Below, in pieces: positions 32,501-48,600 of a stretch of 64,000 nt of DNA. Origin of the DNA: Paramecium tetraurelia (taxonomy: Eukaryota). Each line of letters begins with the position of its first letter. The first letter of the stretch is position 1. The position numbers and the translations under genes were made by a program. The DNA lies in NCBI GenBank assembly GCA_000165425.1, contig CT868030.1:310001-374000 (forward strand), given 5' to 3'. Under the pieces are notes generated by a model. The model saw only the letters and a list, made by a program, of their open reading frames with translations, was not told the DNA's origin and made no database searches.

Positions 32501-35500
32501 TTCATTTATTATCATAATAGATGTTAAGAAAAATTACTTTAATCTTAAATCGCCATTTCTTAGTCTACAAATGGGTTAATTTAAATAACCAGTATAATGA
32601 AAATGAAATATTATCACAGGACTAGGATTATTGAATAAATTACCTAAAACTTGATGTAATTATGCCATCTAAATTACTTGAATTCTAATAATTGGTATAT
32701 TTGGCCAACTTATTTTTAACTTATTCATCAGTATTGTTGAAAGTAATATATTAAAGAAAGATTTTATTATTATTACTATTGGAAGAAAAGTCAAATTTAC
32801 CAAATGCATTTTCTTAAGAGTATAAGTTTATAAATTATAGACTCTTCATAAAGATATAATTGTTTAAAGAAGATGGTATCAAATGTAAAAAGGCACACTT
32901 CTATTATGTAAAAATATTCTTGGCTTAAAAATCAGTGACATTTAACTATATTGTAGATTATTAAGCATCAATAGTTAATACTCCCCCTAATTAGGCTAAA
33001 TAATCCTAATGAGATGCTAGAATTGTATTATCGAAAATGCAATTTTTGAGTATTACTTTACCTTCTTATTTTAATTAAATGTAAATAAATCCATAGAAAA
33101 TACTATTCACATCAAAAAAATTAGAATTAGTAAAATTAATAAATTCTGCTTAAAAAATAGCAAAGCCACACAATGACTTGATTAAATCTTATAACTCAAC
33201 ATTAATATTTTTAACATTCAAATTTTACGCTAATATTGAATTAGCTTCAAAAAGAATTATAGTTTCTGAAGAATTATAAACAATAATATCTTGAAACATT
33301 AAGTTATCTAAAATTATCGACGATTTTGGTGATTTTATTTATATTAAAGAAGATTAAAATAAATCTTGGTTTGGCTATTAATACCAAAAGTAATTAGACT
33401 AAAAGATGCAACTTCTTAATTCAATCATAGACTCAGAATCGATTTAAATGTGAATTACTGAGTGAATAGACTTTATTAAATTTAAACTTTAATAATTTTG
33501 AATTAATAAATTTGAGATACTTACATACTTTTTTCCTGACTCATCAGATCTAATTTAAATTAAAGGATCAACAATTTAAATCATATCTACAATTTTCACT
33601 GATAGTAATTCTAATCTGTCAAAGTTTGAAATATAAATTAGTTAATTCTAATAAATTTTATTTAAATTCATTGTAGATTAATAACTTCCTTATAATTATT
33701 CCTTATTTTCAACTAATAAATCATCTACAACAATATTAGCACAGTCCTCTAAACCTAAGAACTGAAATATCACATCATTTTAGATTACGAGATGATTTGC
33801 ATATAAGTTGCACTTTGAATATAAAAGAAAAAATTATCACTTATTTTTCCTTTAGAATATATTTAATCAATCTTCTCAAATTTAGAATACTTAATAATTA
33901 CGTCTATATTAATATTTTGAGTTAAAGATATTAGTTATAGAATATTGGTTCCATTTAATTGTAAATTTTAGCATTATAATTGATTAACTAAAAAAAAAGT
34001 TTAGGTTGATTCAAATTAGTGATAAAAGATCCTGCTCTTAATTGCAATTGTATCTACTATTTGAACAGTCTCTAAGTTTACAGAAGAAAAAGTAGATATT
34101 ATTGTTGAATTATTTAAGAATGTATTCAATAATTTTACACTACGAATTAAAACCATATCTTAAGATTTTGATATAAAGAAAATTGAACTATTATCCAAAA
34201 AACTATCTTCAATTAAAAATTCTTCAATCACATATTGTTAATTACGATTTTATAATAATTAATTTATGAATAGACTATTTCTAAAAGTGCAATTCTAGAT
34301 CTTAACAGATTTAATCAATATTTTATTAAATTTATCAGATGCAAAATAAAAAAACTAACTATCTTAGAAGGTACAATTTTTAAATTACAAATCGTTCATT
34401 TAAATCGAGGCATTTTTAACGAAATTATTTATTGTTATGATGGTTGATTCATATAAATATACATTTTTCACTGATAGCACACTAATTTAAAAATCAGATG
34501 AGAAATTAATAGTTAAGAAATTTTTAGCTATTTCATTTCGTATTGTTAGATTCTAAACAATCACATCAACACCATAAACAGTTGTCACTGCAATATGAGA
34601 ACCCTTAAGCTTATAAAGACTATTGAATATGTGAAAGTTAGTTATGTTGAAGAGTTCAACAAATCCCTATCCTGTCATATCAGCCTCAACAATAATTGTG
34701 GCTGTGTAATTTTTTAAGGCATAATAATCATTTAAAAGATTTTCTTAATGTGGAATCATGTTTTCTATAATATAATAATAGTTTGATATGCTTTTTTATA
34801 AAATAAAGTTACCATCGAATATGGAACTAGATTTTTGTTGGCTGTTACTTATAAATTTTTATTTCAATTTTGTTTCGTTGTTATATGGCTATATTAATCC
34901 ACTTCTTTGATCAATATAAGTTAAATTATTATTAAAGTTTAATAGACATTTATGAGTTTATTTAATGCTTGTTGAATTAAGTAGAAAGTATGGATTATAT
35001 TTCTAATATTATTTAAATACTTACATGAACCAAATCGCTGTCAAGTGGCAGGCAAAATCTACATGGATAAGGGCATTGATAACATCTACCAGAAATTTAC
35101 GAATAAAAGTCAATATATTCATCTGAAGTAGTAGTACACTTAAGGCATTATTATTCTCCATCAATTTATTCACATATATCACAATTCGAACAAGGGGATA
35201 TGCATTTATTGGATTAAATATCTAAAACTAGATTATTTGAGCATTAGGTGATTAAGACTTGGTCATAGTTTCTAAATAATTGGCTCAAACCATAAAAATC
35301 TTAAGTTAATTATTATAAGTATCCTATAGTTTCTAATTTATACCTTTAGAGCATTTTATTATTTAACTCACATTCTTAAACATTCTCAAATTTCTCATTA
35401 CAAGAAATGCATAACCCATTTAGATTGTTGTTATAATATCCAACCTTACATTATAAGCACACCATTAAATCAAATAAGTTATAAATACATTATTCACAAT

Positions 35501-37778
35501 TAGGAATCTTGTCTTAGCAATTAGTTATTTATTGAAATTTGTTCTCCAATAATTCAAATTGTGTAGCATAACAAATAGTATCTCCATCGCTGTCTATATA
35601 ATATAAACAATTATTGTCAATTTTATTTTTAATGCATAAATTCGTTTTGAATGAGAAAGAATATCCTTGTTAACATAGTGCGCATCCAATTACATAATCA
35701 TCATTAACCTAACCTTCGTTTTATGCATCATTAAGGATTGAATTTTCTTTAATATTGTATTAATTATATTAAAAACAATATTTGCAATGTAAAATTGAGC
35801 ATTATTAACATTATCCCTTAGAATTTATAAAATATTAAGTTTAACTGGAACACACATAACAAAGTTCTTCATTACAATATTTACAATTATTTTAGCAAGC
35901 CGTATTTTTAATCTTAAGTACTCTTATCTAAAAGCATTCACCATTCTCAAACATGTAATTATCTATGCATTTTATATAGGTTTATTAATTCAAATGTTTA
36001 TAATTAGATAAATAGCAATCTTAATCTTGAAATTAATTACATAGCAAGCATCCTTTGCATGGAATCAATTATTCATTTTCAAATAAAAATTATATATTTG
36101 TTATTTCAGGATCATTACGTTTTTTAAGAAAATTATTAGAAGATTCAAACAAATAATATGTATTTTTGCAATTAGTACTTTTTAGAACCCAGTCAATGGG
36201 TCTCATTAAACATTCTGCGCAGATGACCTAATTGTGTTAACTTGCTGAAGGACTAATTTAAATATTAAAATACCACTAAAAACACATTTAATCAAAACTA
36301 AATTCTCCAAATTTACAGAATTCCTAATCTTATTCTTCTTATTCGTCTATTAGACTCACAGTAACTTGATTTTAAGTAACAAATTAGCAAGTAAAATCTG
36401 ATTTTTCTGAATACCAAACCTTGCATCTACAAGTTTATTCAACTTCATTGTAAATTCTATTTTTTTACTCTGGACAACTTAAACATTAATTTTAAGATGG
36501 CCCTATGCAAGTTTAGCATGAATAATGACATTAGATATTTTCATTATTACAATCATAAAACAAAATCAATCCAAAAGATCTACCTAAAGTACTAAAATCC
36601 TCTCTTGATCCACCAAAAAATAAACGATAATATATATTTGAAAATTAATTCACATTTGTATACCTCTTTTCTATTTTCTTGTCTTACTTTTTATTAATTA
36701 AATGAAAATTTAAAGTATCTGGATCATATTCAACTTGAATAAAATGCCATGTACTTAATAGAGAATGATTTTAAACAAAAATAAGGTCTTCTTTTTAAAA
36801 TGGATCATTATTATTTGTAAATTATACTATGATTGGTAACACATAAGAATAATATTAGATTCTAATCATCCATTATTTTTATTCTGAATAATACATATAA
36901 GATAAAATAAAAGAATTAGATCCTGTAGCTTAAAAATCAGTAGTAAATCGGTTAGCAACTATTCGTAAAACATGTATTTTATGATCAACTTCAGGATCAA
37001 AGTCATTTTAAATCTTAGCCCAAAATGTTACTTTATAATATTTTTAATTCTAATTTTCTATCATATAAATTTGGTGCTAGTTAAATTCTTTCATGTCTAA
37101 TTATCCTAATAGCAAAACTGTATTATCTGAACATTTGATCTCAGAGAATATATCCCAAGCGTCTTCCCTATCTCTTTCATAAACACTAACAGCTGCTAAT
37201 AATTGACCTGGGAATGTTTTTAAATTTAGCATATACTTTGTAATTGGATGCACAACCTATAATTGATAATGACAAAGTACTTAATAAGAACCTCCTATAA
37301 CGAAATTGATATTTGAGTACTTAAATTCTTAAAATGAATATGATTTTAATGATTTTTTATGGTCTCCCCACCTCATCTCTAAATTTAATAATTTTGAGTT
37401 AACATCGTAATTGATATATTGTTAATACCACAAACCTTCATACTCTTCTAAATTAAAAATAAACTCATTCGATAACCATTAGTTTTCTTAGTAATAATAC
37501 AGATGGTGAATTATTTTTTCTCTTGAATTTGATAATTCGACATAATGAAGATAGAATAAACCTCCTTCCAATAATTTTGCGCTCGACAAAAAGTAGTAAA
37601 TATCAGTATTCATCGATTCATACATGTAGTATTTTGCTCCTAATGGGCATAATTTTGAAACAACCCCATAACTATAAAATGGGTTGTCCCATTCGCTATC
37701 AACTGAGTATCGAGTCTAATCATTGATATAGCTAAAGCTAGAGATGCAGATTTATAATAAATGGAAAATAAATAACAT
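29545..37778 (-). CDS. giant (~2700 aa) ciliate surface protein: signal peptide, Cys-rich furin-like repeats, Asn-rich beta-helix-like region, C-terminal multi-TM domain
   Basis: MLFIFHLLQICISS; CHYSC..C.GPS..QCLSC; repeated CxxC; GGAMFI/AGAIYL motifs; GFWR..CIGGW..GSIGAICKECD; several TM segments with YGFLCNDYK..YYWELV. Confidence 0.85.
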
Positions 37779-37940
37779 AATTAAATAAAATCATATTATT
37801 GAAAACAAATCATATAATTATAATTATATTTACAAAGTATTATTTAATTAAATCATATCTTATTTTATCAGAATTACTCATATTTTATAGATTTATAAAT
37901 CCAAGGAGATTTAAAAATTTAAATAAATATTTCTCAACTC

Positions 37941-39716
37941 ATGAATAATTAGTAACCATAATCACTGTTTTCTAATTCATCTAAATAGACATAAAACCAA
38001 GGACTTTTCTAATAATAATAGTAATCTTTCAACGCAAATTTCGGAATTGCCTAGTAACCCACAGGAAATATTTTCCCGAGTCCTGTAATTCCTCATAGTA
38101 ATTCCAATTTATTTGGAGCACAAATCAACAATGCTTACCAAATTTAATAACCACTATTCCAACAATATTCAGTGATACAACCTACATAGTTTATTAATAT
38201 TAATTTTGATGATGATGAAAAGATAGAGCCTAAAAAAGAAGATGCCAAATAAAATACAAATAAATATGATTTAAATGAAAAACTTTACTTTGAGGTTAGA
38301 TCCTTATACAAAATGGGAAAATTGCTTAACAGTAGGACATAATATTTACCTGGAATCGTAAGTATAAAAGCTTTAGATTAAGCTGTCACGTAGAATCAAA
38401 AAAATTAGCGAGTTGGGGTAGATTTGGTAATTATTATTAAATATTGTTTTAGATATGCTTAATTGACATTAGTGGAAGTATGATAGGAGTTAAAATTGAA
38501 ATGGTTAAGGCATCCTTAATTGTTCTTCTCTAATTTCTTGGAGATAATGATAGACTATAATTAATAACTTTCGATAATGATGCACATAGATTAACTCCCT
38601 TAAAAACTGTAACCAACCAAAATAAAAGTTATTTTACTTAAATCATCAAATAAATTAAAGCAAATGGAGGTAATCGTATTTCAGAAGCTACTAAAATGGC
38701 ATTTTACTAATTAAAAAGTAGAAAATATATAAATAATGTGACATCGGTTTTCTTACTTTCTGATGGTGTTGATTATACTTATCCAGAGGTAAAGAATCAA
38801 ATATAGACAGTGAATGAAGTGTTTACTTTGCATACATTTGGTTTTGGAGAGGATCATGATGCTTAGATGATGACTTAGTTATGTAATTTAAAGAGTGGAA
38901 GTTTTTATTTTGTATAGGATGTAACATTATTGGATGAATTCTTTGCAGATGCTTTGGGAGGACTAATCTCTGTCGTAGGTGAATAATTAGAAATAACACT
39001 TTCATCTTCAGCACCTCCTCCTTATTAAGATATTCAAATATCTAAAACTTATGGAAATATGTGGTAAAAGAAAGGAAATCAATATTATATTACTCAACCT
39101 TAAATTGCATCTGGATCAAGAAAAGATTACGTTTTTGAATTGGCTCTTCCAAAATTTGAAGGGAAAATCGAAGATAATCATAGAAATGTGAAAGTTATAG
39201 AGGCAGTATTAAAAATAAAAGATCCAATTAATGGAGCAATTATAACTAAATAAACTAGTCTTACATTAACATTCTTTAATTAAGATGAATAAATTAATTA
39301 AAATGAATCAGATATTGATGTTTATGCATAATATTATAGAGTAAAAGGAACAGAAGTAATTGATGATGCAAGAAAAGCTTGTGAATAAAATAAGAATGAA
39401 GATGCTTAAAAGTTGATTGATAATATGTTGATACAAATTTAAAAGAATCAAAATGTTGCTGCTTAATGTACTGGAATTATTTAAGATTTATAATAAGCAA
39501 AATAAGCATCTTCAAGAAATACCTATAATTTATTTGGCCAAAAATAAATGTGTCAAATGGTCAGTAATAACTATCAATAGGGAGGAGTCAACTCTTTATT
39601 CTCTGCCACAGGAGCATAATATATAATAAGTTCTACCAGCTGCATACTCTAATGCTTGCTAATAATAAATGATGTTTCAAGTATAAGCATCCAAACCTAG
39701 TAACAAGTAACATTGA
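37941..39716 (+). CDS. vWA-domain protein, copy A (+1 insertion at ~39621 may extend the reading frame to 39877)
   Basis: Q-rich N-terminus; VDL/ICLIDISGSM..LLSDG..LHTFGFGEDHDA..GSFYFV..FADALGGL; intron 38427-38452. Confidence 0.9.
38805..39699 (+). repeat. shared vWA 3' module, copy in gene A
   Basis: Matches 44456-45349 directly and 41334-42227 inverted; an identical off-frame 63-aa ORF appears three times in the ORF track. Confidence 0.95.
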
Positions 39717-41269
39717 TTCATTATATTATGAATTTATTATTAATTACCTCTATCTTTCCTTTTACAAATTATATTATTTACACCTTTATCGCTTATTTCT
39801 TCCACAAGAGTTATTACAGATATTTAATATAATATTTCAAAATAGTTAATGCCTTTATTTCGATTTTAAGATTATGAGATCCATCATATCTTATATAGAC
39901 ATACAATTAATATTTTTAAATCCTATACAAATGGAGACTATTTTTACTTTAGTTACATATAGTAATTCCAAAGTATTGGTTTTAGAATAAGAAATCATAT
40001 ATCTATTTCGTATTTTTTTTGATTTTGAATGATTTTATATAAAAAAGATACTACTCTTTGATTTATTATTTAAAGATTATCCTAAATAATAATTTTGTAT
40101 CATAAGAAACTAAATCATCAGAAAATTAATTACTTTTATATTCATCTTGAGATTTAAGCTCTAAAAATAAATTTTCTATGTAAATTTTCCAACAAGGTCA
40201 GTGTGAGAGTGGAGAGCCTTATGTGACCCCATTTGTAAAGTGATAGTAAATTGGTAATATTAATTTATGTTGAAGAGAACGGAAGATAACCATATTCTTT
40301 GGATAATTCTAATGTCAAATAGGTTACATTTTTTTTGGTAATCTTAATCCCAACAATTAAAAGAGTAGACTGAATATTGAATTAGGTTTGAACTGCATTT
40401 TAATAAGGACATTAGATTAAACTCTATTTAAGGAATGATTCTAGCTCTACAGCAAATATGATTGATTTCAATAGTCCTAAATATTATTCAAAGTTTGAAT
40501 ATTTTTTAGTTTATCTAAGATAAATGCCGCTGCTTTGTTTTACGATATTCTTTTTGAATTTCAAGAATTTCTATTTGGTTTAAAGGTGATAACAGGATTA
40601 AGTCGTTCTCCCTTAGAGATTAAGCCGAAATATTTTAACTAGTTGTTCATGGAGGCATTCCAAATTGTAAATCATTTTAATCACCAAAATAGAAAGGAGA
40701 AAATTCCATTCTCTTTTTTTATCCTTAAAATTCAATTACATTATTTTACATTTTCTTTATTAAATATAATTATAGCATGAAATGAATATGTTTGAAATCT
40801 AAATCTATATTAAATTCTATCTTTACTGTAATGATATATTTGTAAATAATACGAGCTGCAATAACTTCACATTTGTTCTGAATACCTATTTTGCAAACAT
40901 ATTTTGAAGGAATATATTTTTAATACTAGAAGTGGCTTCTATTGCAACATAGAACCCTTATAATATCATTTCATAATAAACGTATCTTAAAGACTTTATA
41001 TCATTTAAAACAGAACCTATATTTTAAATTCTGATTTGCGCCTTAAATCAGAATTTGTGTTCAAAGATTCGGTATAAATTTCTTTGGTTTTGGTGATTTT
41101 GTAATGTAATAAAGAAAATTTTTGTTTTCTTTAACAATATTGATATATATATCATAATATCTAATTTCTATCCCTTCAATTTTTGGTAAGTATTTTTTAA
41201 ATTTTCTAAATTATAAAAATTTCGTAAATGAAATTAAGATTTTATATGAAAATTAACATATTCAAAGCA

Positions 41270-42236
41270 TAGAAATATATGAAATGGTTGTATATTATAA
41301 AATGATGATAAATGAATCAAGAGGGTTTGTAGTTAGGTTTGGATGCTTATACTTGAAACATCATTTATTATTAGCAAGCATTAGAGTATGCAGCTGGTTG
41401 AACTTATTATAATTATGCTCCTGTGGCAGAGAATAAAGAGTTGACTCCTCCCTATTGATAGTTATTACTGACCATTTGACACATTTATTTTTGGCCAAAT
41501 AAATTATAGGTATTTCTTGAAGATGCTTATTTTGCTTATTATAAATCTTAAATAATTCCAGTACATTAAGCAGCAACATTTTGATTCTTTTAAATTTGTA
41601 TCAACATATTATCAATCAACTTTTAAGCATCTTCATTCTTATTTTATTCACAAGCTTTTCTTGCATCATCAATTACTTCTGTTCCTTTTACTCTATAATA
41701 TTATGCATAAACATCAATATCTGATTCATTTTAATTAATTTATTCATCTTAATTAAAGAATGTTAATGTAAGACTAGTTTATTTAGTTATAATTGCTCCA
41801 TTAATTGGATCTTTTATTTTTAATACTGCCTCTATAACTTTCACATTTCTATGATTATCTTCGATTTTCCCTTCAAATTTTGGAAGAGCCAATTCAAAAA
41901 CGTAATCTTTTCTTGATCCAGATGCAATTTAAGGTTGAGTAATATAATATTGATTTCCTTTCTTTTACCACATATTTCCATAAGTTTTAGATATTTGAAT
42001 ATCTTAATAAGGAGGAGGTGCTGAAGATGAAAGTGTTATTTCTAATTATTCACCTACGACAGAGATTAGTCCTCCCAAAGCATCTGCAAAGAATTCATCC
42101 AATAATGTTACATCCTATACAAAATAAAAACTTCCACTCTTTAAATTACATAACTAAGTCATCATCTAAGCATCATGATCCTCTCCAAAACCAAATGTAT
42201 GCAAAGTAAACACTTCATTCACTGTCTTTATTTGCT
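41270..42236 (-). repeat. left arm of a ~967-bp inverted repeat (partner 44447-45413)
   Basis: No differences seen in the segments compared by eye; identical 63-aa and 72-aa ORFs in the track; includes ~47 nt of 3' UTR. Confidence 0.93.
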
Positions 42237-43140
42237 TCTTTACCTCTGGATAAGTAACATCAACACCATCAGAAAGTAAGAAAACCGATGTCACATTATT
42301 TATATATTTTCTACCTTTTAATTAGTAAAATGTCATTTTAGTAGCTTCTGAAATACGATTACCTCCATCTGCTTAAATTTATTTGATGATTTAAGTAAAA
42401 TAACTTTTATTTTGGTTGGTTACAGTTTTTAAAGGAGTTAATCTATGTGCATCATTATCGAAAGTTATTAATTATAGTCTATCATTATCTCCAAGAAATT
42501 AGAGAAGAACAATTAAGGATGCCTTAACCATTTCAATTTTAACTCCTATCATACTTCCACTAATGTCAATTAAGCATATCTAAAACAATATTTCATAATA
42601 ATTACTAAATCTACTCCGACTCGTTGACTTTCTTATTTTTAAAAGATATTTTAATCCTATGCTTTTAGACTTACAATTCCAGGTAAGTATTATGGTCTAG
42701 TTTATGGTAATTTTCCCTTCTTGTATAAGGCTTTAACTTCGAATGAAAGTTATTCATTTAAATTATATTTATTAGGAGTATATTTTTTAGGTTGAATCAT
42801 ATCATCATCATTATAAGTGATCTTTTAAATTGCATTACCACTTTATTTAACATATTAATCAGGTTAGTAAACTTTGTATTGTCTTAATTATACTTGCTAA
42901 ATAGGACCATTATTTTTAAATAGCAATTAATTACTAGAAGGATTCATCACATATTGTACACTTGCTATCGGTGGTTATTATGCAATCTTGTATTACTAAA
43001 AACAATTTAAATGTTGTTGTTAATGTAATTAAGAAGGATTCTTATACATTTAACTTTAAGGTCTTGTTTTGACTTAAATCTAAAAATTGTAGTGCAAATA
43101 TTACCTTGCTCGGATATTATTAACTATTGATACTAATCAT
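41317..43140 (-). CDS. vWA-domain protein, copy B
   Basis: MISINSQQYPSK..; core nearly identical to copy A; introns at ~43080-43104 and 42580-42605. Confidence 0.9.
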
Positions 43141-43590
43141 GACTGAGATTTTATTTAATATTTAAACGCAAAAATTATTCGCTTATAAATTGCTTTTCTG
43201 TGAATTTCTGATGAATCTAATAATTGGACTTCTATAAATGTATCTCAGCATTTTTGAAGTTCTTCATTATTATTTTTCTAACTTTCATTAAAATGATCAA
43301 TCATTTGTTTTTTTATGAATTTAATTTATAAAAAAGGATTTTCTTTTTTATAAATAAGAACTTAAATTAATGAACTCTTTGACTTTTTCAAATTGAATCA
43401 ATGAATTCAATTTATTCAATATTTATTACTGCTCAATCGAGTCCTTTAATTTTAATATTTTATATTTTAGGGAATTCTATTAGTATTATTAATGATATTA
43501 AAATCATCAGATTTAATCAAATTTATATGATTAAAGCCTTAGGAAAATAAATTTTTTTAAATTATTTAAATATTTTATTTCCTTTTAAAC

Positions 43591-45366
43591 ATGAATCAAT
43601 AACAGGTACCTTAATCCCTCTTTGGCAATTAATCAAACTAACAATACTAATAATAATCAATTTACAATTAACAACAATAATAGAATTTTCAACAATTTTC
43701 CCAAATACCCTTCTAAGCTTTACCAAATTTCCCATTATAATCAAACCCTCCTCATTCTCATAACAATATATTTGGAAGACAACCTCAATAATATCCATAA
43801 CAAATGTTTTAAGCTCAACCCTATTAACCCAGTCTTTTTGGAATGAATACTGTAAAAAATTAAGATATTCATACTAATTTTAATGATGATGAAAAGATAG
43901 AGCCTAAAAAAGAAGAGGCAAAATAAAATGCAAATAAGTATAATTTAAATGAAAAACTTTCATTCGAAGTCAAAGCTTTATACAAAATGGGAAAATTGCT
44001 TAACAGTAGAACTTAATACTTACCTGGAATCGTAAGTATAAAAGCTTAAGATTAAGCTGTCATTTAGAATCAAGAAAATTAACGAGTCGGGGTAGATTTG
44101 ATATGTTTAATTGATAAAAGTGGAAGTATGAATGGGTAAAAGATAGAAATGGTTAAGCAAACATTAGCATTATTGCTTGATTTTCTAAATGAAAATGATC
44201 GATATTAACTTATCACTTTTGAGTCTTAAGCTTAAAGATTAACACCATTAAAAAGGGTAACAGATGGAAATAAATAATACTTTAAATAAGTTATATAACA
44301 AATAAATTCTGGTGGTGGAACAACTATTGGAACAGCTACAGAAATAGCTTTTAAATAATTATAAGAAAGAAAATATAGAAACAATGTCACGTCTATATTC
44401 CTACTTTCAGATGGCCAAGATGGTCAAGCAAATTAAAGGATTTAGGAGCAAATAAAGACAGTGAATGAAGTGTTTACTTTGCATACATTTGGTTTTGGAG
44501 AGGATCATGATGCTTAGATGATGACTTAGTTATGTAATTTAAAGAGTGGAAGTTTTTATTTTGTATAGGATGTAACATTATTGGATGAATTCTTTGCAGA
44601 TGCTTTGGGAGGACTAATCTCTGTCGTAGGTGAATAATTAGAAATAACACTTTCATCTTCAGCACCTCCTCCTTATTAAGATATTCAAATATCTAAAACT
44701 TATGGAAATATGTGGTAAAAGAAAGGAAATCAATATTATATTACTCAACCTTAAATTGCATCTGGATCAAGAAAAGATTACGTTTTTGAATTGGCTCTTC
44801 CAAAATTTGAAGGGAAAATCGAAGATAATCATAGAAATGTGAAAGTTATAGAGGCAGTATTAAAAATAAAAGATCCAATTAATGGAGCAATTATAACTAA
44901 ATAAACTAGTCTTACATTAACATTCTTTAATTAAGATGAATAAATTAATTAAAATGAATCAGATATTGATGTTTATGCATAATATTATAGAGTAAAAGGA
45001 ACAGAAGTAATTGATGATGCAAGAAAAGCTTGTGAATAAAATAAGAATGAAGATGCTTAAAAGTTGATTGATAATATGTTGATACAAATTTAAAAGAATC
45101 AAAATGTTGCTGCTTAATGTACTGGAATTATTTAAGATTTATAATAAGCAAAATAAGCATCTTCAAGAAATACCTATAATTTATTTGGCCAAAAATAAAT
45201 GTGTCAAATGGTCAGTAATAACTATCAATAGGGAGGAGTCAACTCTTTATTCTCTGCCACAGGAGCATAATTATAATAAGTTCAACCAGCTGCATACTCT
45301 AATGCTTGCTAATAATAAATGATGTTTCAAGTATAAGCATCCAAACCTAACTACAAACCCTCTTGA
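43591..45366 (+). CDS. vWA-domain protein, copy C (intronless, divergent MIDAS core)
   Basis: MNQQQVPQSLFGN..VDLICLIDKSGSM..SGGGTTIG..LLSDGQD, followed by the same C-terminal half as A and B. Confidence 0.92.
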
Positions 45367-45413
45367 TTCATTTATCATCATTTTATAATATACAACCATT
45401 TCATATATTTCTA
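44447..45413 (+). repeat. right arm of a ~967-bp inverted repeat (partner 41270-42236)
   Basis: Reverse complement of 41270-42236. Confidence 0.93.
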
Positions 45414-45671
45414 AAAAATCAATATGAAAATATTATTCTAATATATGTCTTGAATTTACAAAGTTTTAAGCATCCTTTTAGTACTAATTTAAAATAAAAA
45501 AATTGTTTTAAGTAATATTTAATTTATAAAAATCGAAATTAGCATAACTCACGTAATTTTTAACCTTTGACGATCTTTCCCATCTGAAGTTTAAGTTTTT
45601 ATTAACTAAGAATGATTGTATTTACTTTATTTAAAATATTTTATTATTCCCTTATTGTTAATTAATAAATC

Positions 45672-48600
45672 ATGTATTCATTTAATGAATTATATACTGG
45701 TTTTACCATACTAATACTAATATTGTAAACTAGTTAATAGCTTTATGAAATAGATTAGAATGCATAATAGATATCCTTAAACAGTATATGGTATCCAGTT
45801 GATTCATATATTGGAACACTTTTTAAATATTGTCCTTTGAGTGTTATTTCTCATATAGGACCTGTTCAACGAAGCTAAACTAACTCCTATCTATTATATT
45901 TAGGATATGAAAGACTCACAGAGATGTTACTTTTCCTTCATTACGTAAAATTTCTTCCAGAAGAGAGGAAAATAATACATATTGTTAAATTTAACATTAA
46001 AAATGAAATTATGGAAGAAGAGTTTGAATTCGATTCCAATGATTATGAAGGTAAATGGTATATGCAGTATATGTATTATAATACAAATTAGAGAAAAATT
46101 ATATTGGGTTTTATGTCAAAAGAATGGTAAATGGAAAAAAGCCTTATTTCTTAGAGCTTTTTCGACAAAGAGTTTAAGTTGATCATAGGAGGGAGTTTAA
46201 ATGTAAAATTTTTTATTATGTAAAGAGCGTTAAAAACAGTTTTTAGGAGGAATATTTATTGAGCAGTTTTCCAGGAAAAATGAAATTAATATTTTTAGAA
46301 TAGAATGAGAAAAGGGAATTTTATATTTCCAATCTGAAAGACTGCGAATTCAATTTTTAAGCATTAATTAACGAATATTATGATTATAAGACCCAATTAC
46401 TATAATTACAGGTTGATTAAGAATATGACACACAATATTTGATATAGGTTTGGGTTCAAATTGATGATGTTTTGAGTGAATTTTAAACAATTTAAGTGAT
46501 TAGATTGAACCTCAAATATCAATTAGATGAAGAGAACCATATAGATTTGACGAGTTTTTAAATTACTTATATAAGTGAGAATTCCAAATGGTATTATTGT
46601 CTTTAATTTTATTCCTATATTTATCCATTCATTTTTTCAAAAACTTAAATTTAGGATTTTACAAAGAACTATCAATATGAAATTGGTAGCGAATTTCTTA
46701 CCTCATGGCATTTAATATAAGTTAGCTACAAAAATAAATAAATCAATTACGGAATGAGAAACTATCTATTAAATAAATAGTTGCTGAAACAATTTGAAAA
46801 TGTAAATTAGTTTTCTTGCTCTAAATTTACAATTGTTTTAGGATAAAATAGTGGTGAAAATTTACTGAGTGGCCAAATTTAAAATTTAAAATATTCAACC
46901 TGTCCTTCTAGTGATAACAGTATTTAGTTTGACCATTGCCATTACTCTTGTCAAACTTGTTTTGGGCCAAACAGCAATCATTGTTGGTCATGTGATGTAA
47001 GAAAAAATAGAATATTTAATCCAAAAGTTAATACATGCAAATGCAAATTATGGTATTTAGACTTAGATGAAGTTTAATGTCATGGATAATCTGAGTTTAA
47101 TTTAATAGAAACTAAAATTTATTTACCTGAAGATACAAGGTACGATGAAATTTAACCTATAGTTTAATGTGCTTATGGGTACTTTCGATATTTAGATTCA
47201 TGCATTTAGTGGTATAATTTAATGATTAATAAGTCCATCTGCATCATAGAAGGGAGCCATATAATGTCTAGATTGTATTCTATATCCAGATACATGGGTT
47301 TAAAATGGCATGTGCTATCAATAATATTAATAATTTGATATGGATGAATAAAATACTTATAGACATATTGCCGATGCTGCTTCACCATAATCAAATTTTT
47401 ATTTACTAATTGATGAAGAGTTATTTACTTGTGAAGATTGTGTATTTTGTTCAAAAGAAGAATATTTGGAAGAATAAGAAATGGGAATTAGCTATTGCAT
47501 TTTATATCCTTTAAAACATATGAATTAAGATACTTACATAATGTGTATATATGGAAATTTAGACTATGAAACTTTTAAATGCTAACCGCAAGAAGTGATA
47601 GAAAGACAAAATTATGGATCCTACAAAGGTACATGTAATGAGTTTTGTGGTTACTGTAGTTTAAGAATGTGTTATTACTGCAAGGATACTACTCTTTACT
47701 TTAGTGACTGGTAAGGAATATGTAGAGTTTGTAATATTGAACACTGTAAATATTGTTTTTCATACAACTAATATGACTTGAATTAAGTATCTGCAAGAAA
47801 AGTTCCTTATTTTAAACTCCCATCTAATTTGGAAGAAGATTACATAATAGGGTGTTCGCTTTGTTATTCAGGGTATATATTTGATTTTACTATCAATGAA
47901 TGCGTAAAAAAGAGTTTGGAATTTCCATGCTTAAATGCTTTCATCAATCAAGATAATGAATTAATTTGCACTAGTTCATCATTAACAGCTCGAATAACTG
48001 AAGAACCATTAGAAACAATTGGATGCTAAACATATTTCTAGTTCTGTGTGAAATGTGTTTCTGATAATTATAAGATGGTACAATGTACAAAATGTGAGGA
48101 TGGATACTATCTCAATTTTAAAAATGGAATTTGCAAGCCTTGCTCTGAGATAATTGAACATTCAATCAAATGTAAAATGCTCACTTCTTCTTAAGATTCT
48201 TGGAAATATGACGTTATGAGTTTCTATAATAAATTTTTGCCTGATAAAATTCCGATATTGCTTTCAGGATAATATTTTATTGTCTATTACCTTATAGATG
48301 AATGTGAAGAGGGCTATATATATTTTTATGATGAATGTAAAATTGCCAATGATAAAAACTGTTTAAATTGGCATAATGATATAAATGGAGTAATTTGTAA
48401 GACATGTAAATCTTAATCAAAATTTTATCAATCATCCTCTTTCTTCAATGAAAAATGTCAAATGTGCCCATATCCATGTATTATATGCTAAGAAAGAACA
48501 TTAGAAGAGATAAACCTCATCAATCCTTATTTTATTGTTGATGAACAGACTAAAAGCTAAACATATTATTGTATCAAAAATTATGGAAATCAGGAAACAT

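Follow-up and report, generated by a model that had tools for sequence, protein, structure and literature searches.

Between the primate red and green opsin genes, as between RHD and RHCE, adjacent paralogues exchange sequence tracts in such a way that some segments stay type-specific and the rest are homogenised. In Paramecium, gene conversion between paralogues is described as reaching into flanking non-coding DNA (McGrath et al. 2014, PMC4199370; Gout et al. 2023, PMC10195154). PMC4199370 further gives tandem duplicates of P. tetraurelia as rare (351) and mostly old, and the median longest identical stretch between its whole-genome duplication (WGD) paralogues as 108 bp; the Paramecium germline is reported to recombine exceptionally often (PMC13085455). 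Here we describe three neighbouring genes, A, B and C, which encode proteins with a von Willebrand factor type A (vWA) domain and lie in a 64,000-nucleotide stretch of the P. tetraurelia macronuclear assembly (GCA_000165425.1, contig CT868030.1, positions 310,001 to 374,000, forward strand), hereafter called the window. We consider it about 85% probable that they form an old, conserved ArnB/WAV3-like vWA cluster whose concerted evolution is due to recurrent interlocus (non-allelic) gene conversion.

The locus resembles the conversion described between WGD paralogues of the aurelia species in that paralogues within one species are closer to each other than to their counterparts in other species, non-coding flanks are included and the tracts are patchy. 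Unlike those paralogues, which lie on different scaffolds and have a median identical stretch of ~108 bp, the vWA genes are three adjacent copies with tracts of 816-967 bp, in inverted as well as direct orientation, and with a stable unconverted core. The cluster differs from the opsins and RHD/RHCE in having no known functional sites, and its boundary may be set by selection or by sequence divergence. Variable front ends on a constant module also recall antigenic-variation and diversity-generating cassettes; unlike the cassettes of antigenic variation, this cluster has no donor array in the window and no hypervariability, is under purifying selection, and carries combinations that are fixed across species. 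The locus is an unusually clear, long-tract case of a known process and reveals no new mechanism.

A and B stand tail to tail with 1.6 kb between them, and B and C head to head with 450 bp between them. The window is AT-rich (~25-30% GC), its long open frames require the ciliate code in which TAA and TAG are read as Gln, and its introns are 25-26 nt long and of the form GTA..TAG. With C as the query, tblastn found only these three vWA copies in the 64 kb. The spliced translation of B and the translation of C are exactly the annotated P. tetraurelia proteins P0004 and P0121, and A as assembled corresponds to the annotated P0005 (636 aa), the first stop of its spliced translation falling at residue 637; all three are annotated on a contig of 658,971 bp. 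Three observations underlie the call of the 26-nt intron of A and B: the reading frame, the proteins as annotated, and the sequence of C, which is without exactly those 26 nt.

The three genes were placed in a three-way MAFFT alignment and differences were counted segment by segment (Table 1). In the linker that follows the N-terminal head, A and C differ at 25 of 234 positions, A and B at 71 of 235 (69.8% identity) and B and C at 59 of 234 (74.8%). From the intron through the core that bears the MIDAS (metal ion-dependent adhesion site), A is almost identical to B; over 38427-38804, which takes in the intron and the initial 352 nt of exon 2, there are ten differences, and only two of them precede position 38655. 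In the two halves of this core, the identity of C with the A/B type is 66.8% and 64.4%. The change of A from C-like to B-like falls between 38426 and 38452, i.e. inside the 26-nt intron, which is identical in A and B at 25 of 26 positions and absent from C at 44100/44101. Downstream of the core all three genes are identical over 816 bp. A stays near-identical to B and C as far as 39699 (~895 bp in all), with an extra base at 39621 and a T/A difference at 39634 as its only departures between 39621 and 39699, and it diverges fully from 39700; the TGA stands in the same alignment column in A, B and C. The original prediction had described much of this from the letters: a near-identical 3' half of ~890 bp in all three genes, a resemblance of A to C upstream, a match of A to B from the intron at 38427 to ~38800, and a stop codon and 3' untranslated region (UTR) common to B and C from which A departs. 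The alignment recovered each of these elements, and the end then given to the locus, 45413, is the exact end of the tract identical in B and C; the missing intron of C and the common column of the TGA are additions to that description.

Two options are seen for the history of the 26-nt intron: it was lost in C, or it passed from B to A with the converted tract. The other intron of B, of 25 nt (43104-43080), is absent from A and C.

Table 1. Genes, segments, identical tracts and pairwise divergence at the vWA cluster (positions are those of the window unless given as residues; minus-strand features run from high to low positions)
Feature	Position	Strand	Remarks
Gene A as assembled	37941-39877	+	exon 1 37941-38426, intron 38427-38452 (26 nt, GTA..TAG), exon 2 38453-39877; 636 aa
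Gene A, ancestral frame	37941-39716	+	stop is TGA 39714-39716
Gene B	43140-41317	-	590 aa; exons 43140-43105, 43079-42606, 42579-41317
Gene B introns	43104-43080 and 42605-42580	-	25 nt and 26 nt; from spliced translation
Gene C, intronless	43591-45366	+	591 aa; one open frame under code 6
A-B spacer	39717-41316	.	1.6 kb, unique sequence
A linker	38192-38426	+	closest to C 43866-44100 (89.3% nt; dS 0.34)
A intron and MIDAS-bearing vWA core	38427-38804	+	nearly identical to B 42605-42228; 10/378 differ
C-type vWA core	44101-44446	+	DKSGSM...GGGTT...LLSDGQD; 64-67% identical to A/B type
MIDAS Thr region, A	~38670		ANGGNRIS
MIDAS Thr region, B	~42360		ADGGNRIS
MIDAS Thr region, C	~44320		SGGGTTIG
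Triple tract, A copy	38805-39620	+	816 bp identical in A, B, C
Triple tract, B copy	42227-41412	-	816 bp identical in A, B, C
Triple tract, C copy	44456-45271	+	816 bp identical in A, B, C
B=C tract, B copy	42236-41270	-	967 bp; takes in triple tract, stop codon and 47 nt of 3' UTR
B=C tract, C copy	44447-45413	+	967 bp; ends 47 nt past TGA
Extra base in A	39621	+	+1 frameshift relative to B and C (alignment)
Identical-residue run, tetraurelia B/C	residues C287-591		C numbering
Identical-residue run, octaurelia B/C	residues C295-591		C numbering
Identical-residue run, pentaurelia A/C	residues C293-591		C numbering; in three runs
Core, A or B vs C			dS 1.2; dN/dS 0.27 (dN 0.33)
Linker, A-C			dS 0.34; dN/dS 0.19
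Linker, B-C			dS 0.61; dN/dS 0.23
Linker, A-B			dS 0.79; dN/dS 0.26

The clustering of sites along the genes is strong. The 222 informative sites fall into 42 runs, a number that none of 10,000 shuffles reached (mean 134.6, minimum 109). From 5' to 3' the site patterns follow one another as AC-type, AB-type and BC-type: 51 of the 76 variable sites in the linker are AC-type (two of these three-way), 114 of the 122 in the core are AB-type (two of these three-way), and 28 BC-type sites come next. Synonymous and non-synonymous divergence was obtained from Nei-Gojobori counts under code 6. Between the cores of A and B there are one synonymous and seven non-synonymous differences (dS ~0.01); the dN/dS of 0.27 between the two core types shows that the cores are under purifying selection. 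The absence of any difference at synonymous and non-coding sites within the 816-bp and 967-bp tracts, next to segments with dS of 0.34-1.2, supports conversion.

Genes of the same kind were found in other aurelia species by a protein search in which 120 of 408 matches were listed; among these, P. octaurelia, P. pentaurelia, P. primaurelia and P. sonneborni have 2-4 such genes on one contig. We aligned 18 proteins from five species, namely the three of P. tetraurelia, the 12 nearest from the other species, and three distant paralogues as outgroup. The N-terminal heads of tetraurelia-octaurelia orthologues are 65-78% identical and those of paralogues 24-46%. In the linker, tetraurelia A and C (87% amino acid identity) are closer to each other than tetraurelia A is to octaurelia A (77%) or tetraurelia C to octaurelia C (81%). 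In the core, tetraurelia A and B (94%) likewise exceed the orthologues (90% and 85%), and pentaurelia A and B1 reach 97%. C-type cores are 82-95% identical among species and 60-68% identical to the A/B-type cores in every species. Thus heads and the C-type core follow orthology and the 3' module groups by species, as is visible from the comparison with sister species suggested in the original prediction, made here at the protein level. Within the 3' module the tetraurelia proteins are 98-100% identical, octaurelia B and C 100% and pentaurelia A and C 99%, against 84-92% between species. The identity of octaurelia B with C extends over 297 residues, among them octaurelia-specific substitutions that are missing from octaurelia A (89%). 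The module has been homogenised repeatedly and independently in at least three aurelia species.

The 5' starts of the identical-residue runs are similar in the tetraurelia, octaurelia and pentaurelia pairs (Table 1). A C-type patch (LLSDGQDGNAVQRISEQ) in primaurelia B shifts the module boundary further 5', and pentaurelia B1 is a mosaic within the 3' module itself. The pairing of head type with core type is constant in all 12 typed genes (tetraurelia, octaurelia, pentaurelia and primaurelia), and the C-type core shows no conversion in any species compared. At the 24 core sites where octaurelia A and B differ, tetraurelia A and B agree with each other at 20 (11 A-like, six B-like and three other); at two of the remaining sites tetraurelia A and B each have the residue of their own orthologue, and two are mixed. 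This patchwork is as expected from several tracts copied both ways.

Trees and approximately unbiased (AU) tests were made for the segments of the same alignment, with groups named after the trees had been seen. In the core tree the C-types form a clade (92/92) and the split of the A/B-type from the rest is supported at 100/99; a grouping of tetraurelia A, B and C is rejected (p-AU 9.5e-71), as is one of A with C (4.7e-07), and A with B is not rejected (0.50). In the linker, A with B is weakly rejected (0.029) and A with C is not (0.46). The 3' module tree places tetraurelia A, B and C together (73/64), with B equal to C. Linker, core and 3' module are discordant in both trees and tests, which bears out the claim that no single duplication tree fits the three genes; together with the site clustering and the species-wise modules, it also upholds the view that recurrent gene conversion or recombination has homogenised the C-terminal part.

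The proteins were also examined at the level of domains and predicted fold. Pfam places PF00092 (vWA) at residues 169-335 of C (E = 4.3e-22) and finds vWA models only, apart from a sub-threshold Nucleoporin_FG match in the N-terminus; with the 3' module alone it gives a sub-threshold vWA tail (E 0.12) and nothing else. PDB sequence matches put the vWA domain at residues 164-347, and the shared module starts at residue 287, so that its edge falls within the vWA fold. The MIDAS motif consists of D-x-S-x-S, a Thr and an Asp. C has it in full (D-K-S-G-S, GGGT, LLSDG), and the D, S, S and D positions are kept in 52 of 52 aligned homologues; the Thr position holds Thr in 46, Asn in five and Asp in one. 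In A, in B and in the majority of A/B-type orthologues this Thr is replaced by Asn (GGNRIS), and C has Thr. Metal or ligand binding may therefore not be the same in the two core types.

An AlphaFold2 model of C was built for residues 96-591 (window 43876-45363) with 51 homologues picked by hand from the 120 listed, and reached a predicted local distance difference test score (pLDDT) of 91.5 and a predicted template modelling score (pTM) of 0.91. In this model, strands from the linker and from the part after the vWA domain form one β-sandwich, and a helical domain comes next. The best Foldseek match is ArnB (8s05_A, E = 1.4e-24, TMt 0.76), followed by the ArnB relatives 5a8j and 4fx5 and then by Sec23/24 and ITIH1; the ArnB-like architecture of β-sandwich, vWA and helical C-terminal domain is a structural match of the whole predicted architecture of C. 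A β-sandwich/vWA/helical architecture like that of the Sec23/24 core and the WAV3 E3 ligases is described in PMC12852372. WAV3-like plant proteins are among the sequence matches, with similarity confined to the vWA domain and the part that follows it. The Paramecium proteins differ from the WAV3 ligases in having no RING domain by Pfam (none lies N-terminal to the vWA domain in C), from Sec23/24 in having no zinc finger or gelsolin domain by Pfam, and from ArnB, WAV3 and Sec23/24 alike in their Q-rich, low-complexity N-terminus. An identity as WAV3-type E3 ligases was rejected because the RING domain is lacking. Members of the ArnB/WAV3-like vWA family occur widely among ciliates and other protists, and the family is related to the plant WAV3-like proteins; ciliates thus carry RING-less members of it. 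From these comparisons, A, B and C would be cytosolic, metal-dependent protein-binding scaffolds with a Q-rich head that differs among paralogues. Among the titles listed for P. tetraurelia together with 'von Willebrand', none concerns this vWA family.

The assembly and transcription of the cluster were checked with Logan contigs, four runs being compared over A (37900-39950). X1 and X2 are DNA runs from different studies and X20 is an RNA run. Contigs of both DNA runs match the junction of exon 1 and intron in A (38306-38456) with 0 differences, and both runs have unique 1625-nt contigs that begin at 39670 in the 3' flank of A, also with 0 differences; the junction from core to shared module (38744-38834) is matched with 0 differences in X1 only. 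Mean word depth in X1/X2 is ~15/26 in unique sequence, 28/52 where A and B are shared and 58/93 in the triple-shared part, a ratio of ~1 : 1.9 : 3.6, depth not being equal to copy number; the steps give a weak hint of two and three copies. A 1504-nt contig of the RNA run extends from the C linker over 348 nt of C-type core and the shared module into the B/C tail, which indicates that C is transcribed in one piece and without an intron. The head of A (0 differences) and B are covered in the same run, with intergenic bins at zero depth. The spliced joint of the 26-nt intron appears in none of the four runs, and one B contig of X20 keeps the intron.

The course of events that we propose for the tetraurelia lineage, with the minimum number of exchanges, is as follows. 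Each gene retains its own Q-rich N-terminal head, in combination with one of two MIDAS-bearing core types, A/B and C. An older exchange between A and C would account for the linker (dS 0.34), and a recent one between A and B for the stretch from the intron through the core (dS ~0.01), the second half of which may be slightly older or patchier. At least two very recent events would then have made the 3' module identical in A, B and C, the one between B and C reaching 47 nt into the 3' UTR. Conversion would halt at the C-type core, where identity is ~65%; as conversion needs high identity, such a core would give a sharp and recurrent 5' module boundary without selection being invoked. The inverted orientation of A/B and B/C would allow tracts to be copied without deletion of a gene. 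We infer that conversion took place in the germline and that it used the inverted repeats of A with B and of B with C as well as the direct repeats of A with C; how many events there were, and which way each tract was copied, is inferred too. The net effect seen is homogenisation and not diversification.

Several points weigh against this account. The comparison across species is at the protein level only, and the A, B and C type labels (by N-terminal heads) and the clades tested were chosen after the alignment had been inspected. For the 3' module the AU tests of orthology clades are uninformative, as identical rows were left free. Logan contigs do not bridge the 816-bp repeat in a way that would link a given 5' part to its 3' part, and in the stretch shared by A and B they mix letters of the two genes. 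The identical tracts of 816-967 bp are much longer than the median longest identity of 108 bp that PMC4199370 gives for tetraurelia WGD paralogues. A signature of GC-biased conversion is absent, third-position GC being 15.5% in the shared module and 15.3-17.1% in the cores; GC enrichment is a common correlate of converted tracts and not a requirement. Cluster membership is not uniform either: the A-type gene of P. octaurelia is on another contig (413 kb) than B and C (703 kb).

The 3' module of this octaurelia A gene is not homogenised with those of octaurelia B and C (89% versus 100%). Its separate contig and unhomogenised module fit conversion that depends on proximity; an assembly difference could equally account for them.

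Four other explanations were weighed against recurrent conversion halted by divergence. The nearest to it keeps concerted evolution and lets selection hold the boundary: three heads would be presented on two kinds of MIDAS, with Thr in C and with Asn in A and B, and the β-sandwich/helical module would be homogenised because it must stay matched. We regard this as unlikely. Were it true, the paralogues might for instance co-assemble or share one partner, like ArnB with ArnA or Sec23 with Sec24, gene conversion would be the means by which their common interface co-evolves, and the sharp boundary would owe its upkeep to selection and not to sequence divergence alone. A good deal less probable is an adaptive diversification locus, in which recombination puts N-terminal and MIDAS cassettes on a constant module to yield new binding specificities, in line with the candidate diversification locus of the original prediction. 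In its favour are a module that is identical beneath three different heads and two core types, breakpoints that vary among genes and species, and an excess of non-synonymous over synonymous differences between the A and B cores (7 vs 1), but that excess does not reach significance when set against the neutral share (p = 1.0) or the A-C ratio (p = 0.26), and dN/dS in core (0.27) and linker (0.19-0.26) gives no sign of diversifying selection. The same head/core combinations recur in 12 of 12 typed genes from four species, C-type cores are conserved at 82-95% among species, and tblastn of the window gave three copies only, without a silent array of donors. The boundary, moreover, cuts the vWA fold instead of running around it. 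Neither the idea that cassettes are shuffled around the MIDAS core nor that of a candidate diversification locus is supported.

To each of the remaining two explanations we give very little credence. A collapsed or chimeric repeat assembly could have produced the identical modules or the mosaic junctions, since a ~100% identical repeat of 0.8-1 kb is hard to assemble and one consensus could hide a few true differences; the extra base at 39621 in A, found in none of the four runs, points the same way. An artefact of this kind is nevertheless hard to reconcile with two DNA runs of different studies that match the junctions and unique flanks of A with 0 differences (the core-to-module junction in X1 only), with an RNA contig that spans gene C, with depth steps of ~2-fold and ~3.6-fold (weak evidence), or with independent assemblies of four other species, in each of which a similar cluster is present and has modules homogenised in a species-specific way. 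Equally improbable is an account without conversion, by extreme purifying selection on the 3' module or by very recent whole-gene duplicates with later replacement of their 5' parts. No other part of the family is indeed as well conserved as the module, where amino acid identity between species is 76-92% (60-95% in the core), but selection on the protein is unable to erase all synonymous differences over 816 bp, or to keep a 26-nt intron and 47 nt of 3' UTR the same beside codons with dS of 0.3-1.2. Each type has orthologues in other species, which makes the genes old, and 5' replacement would itself be non-allelic recombination.

Read as recurrent interlocus conversion, the locus is a clean and well-bounded instance of concerted evolution in one of the rare tandem clusters of Paramecium, with nested tracts of different ages and a C-type core that has resisted conversion since before the aurelia species split. 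The lengths of conversion tracts, the identity that conversion requires and its rates could all be measured here.

The extra base at 39621 replaces the last ~30 residues of A by an unrelated 76-residue tail, and it is solely through this +1 base that the TGA in the shared column is out of frame in A. The unshifted frame is intact, and its tail (...ASKPSNKQH*) matches that of the P. octaurelia A-type protein (...SSKSSNKQH). The base is present in none of the four runs; the sole contig at this position is the collapsed B/C path, and such contigs drop minor variants. Either A suffered this lesion very recently or the reference is in error.

The spacer between A and B is long by Paramecium standards. 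A convincing open reading frame was looked for in it (39717-41316) and none was found, and an Rfam search over 37000-46500 gave 0 matches. A 1689-nt contig of run X17 (guessed to be RNA) runs from the tail of A through the spacer to the tail of B, at a depth like that of the A head, and the spacer may contain an unannotated transcript.

The vWA cluster is flanked by two genes, at 34914-37778 on the minus strand and ~45774-48488 on the plus strand, which are distant paralogues of each other (~29-34% amino acid identity). They are Cys-rich, 955 aa in length, in inverted orientation and without a Pfam family. The whole locus may go back to a unit of two genes that was long ago duplicated in inverted orientation, with sequence exchange now confined to its vWA genes.

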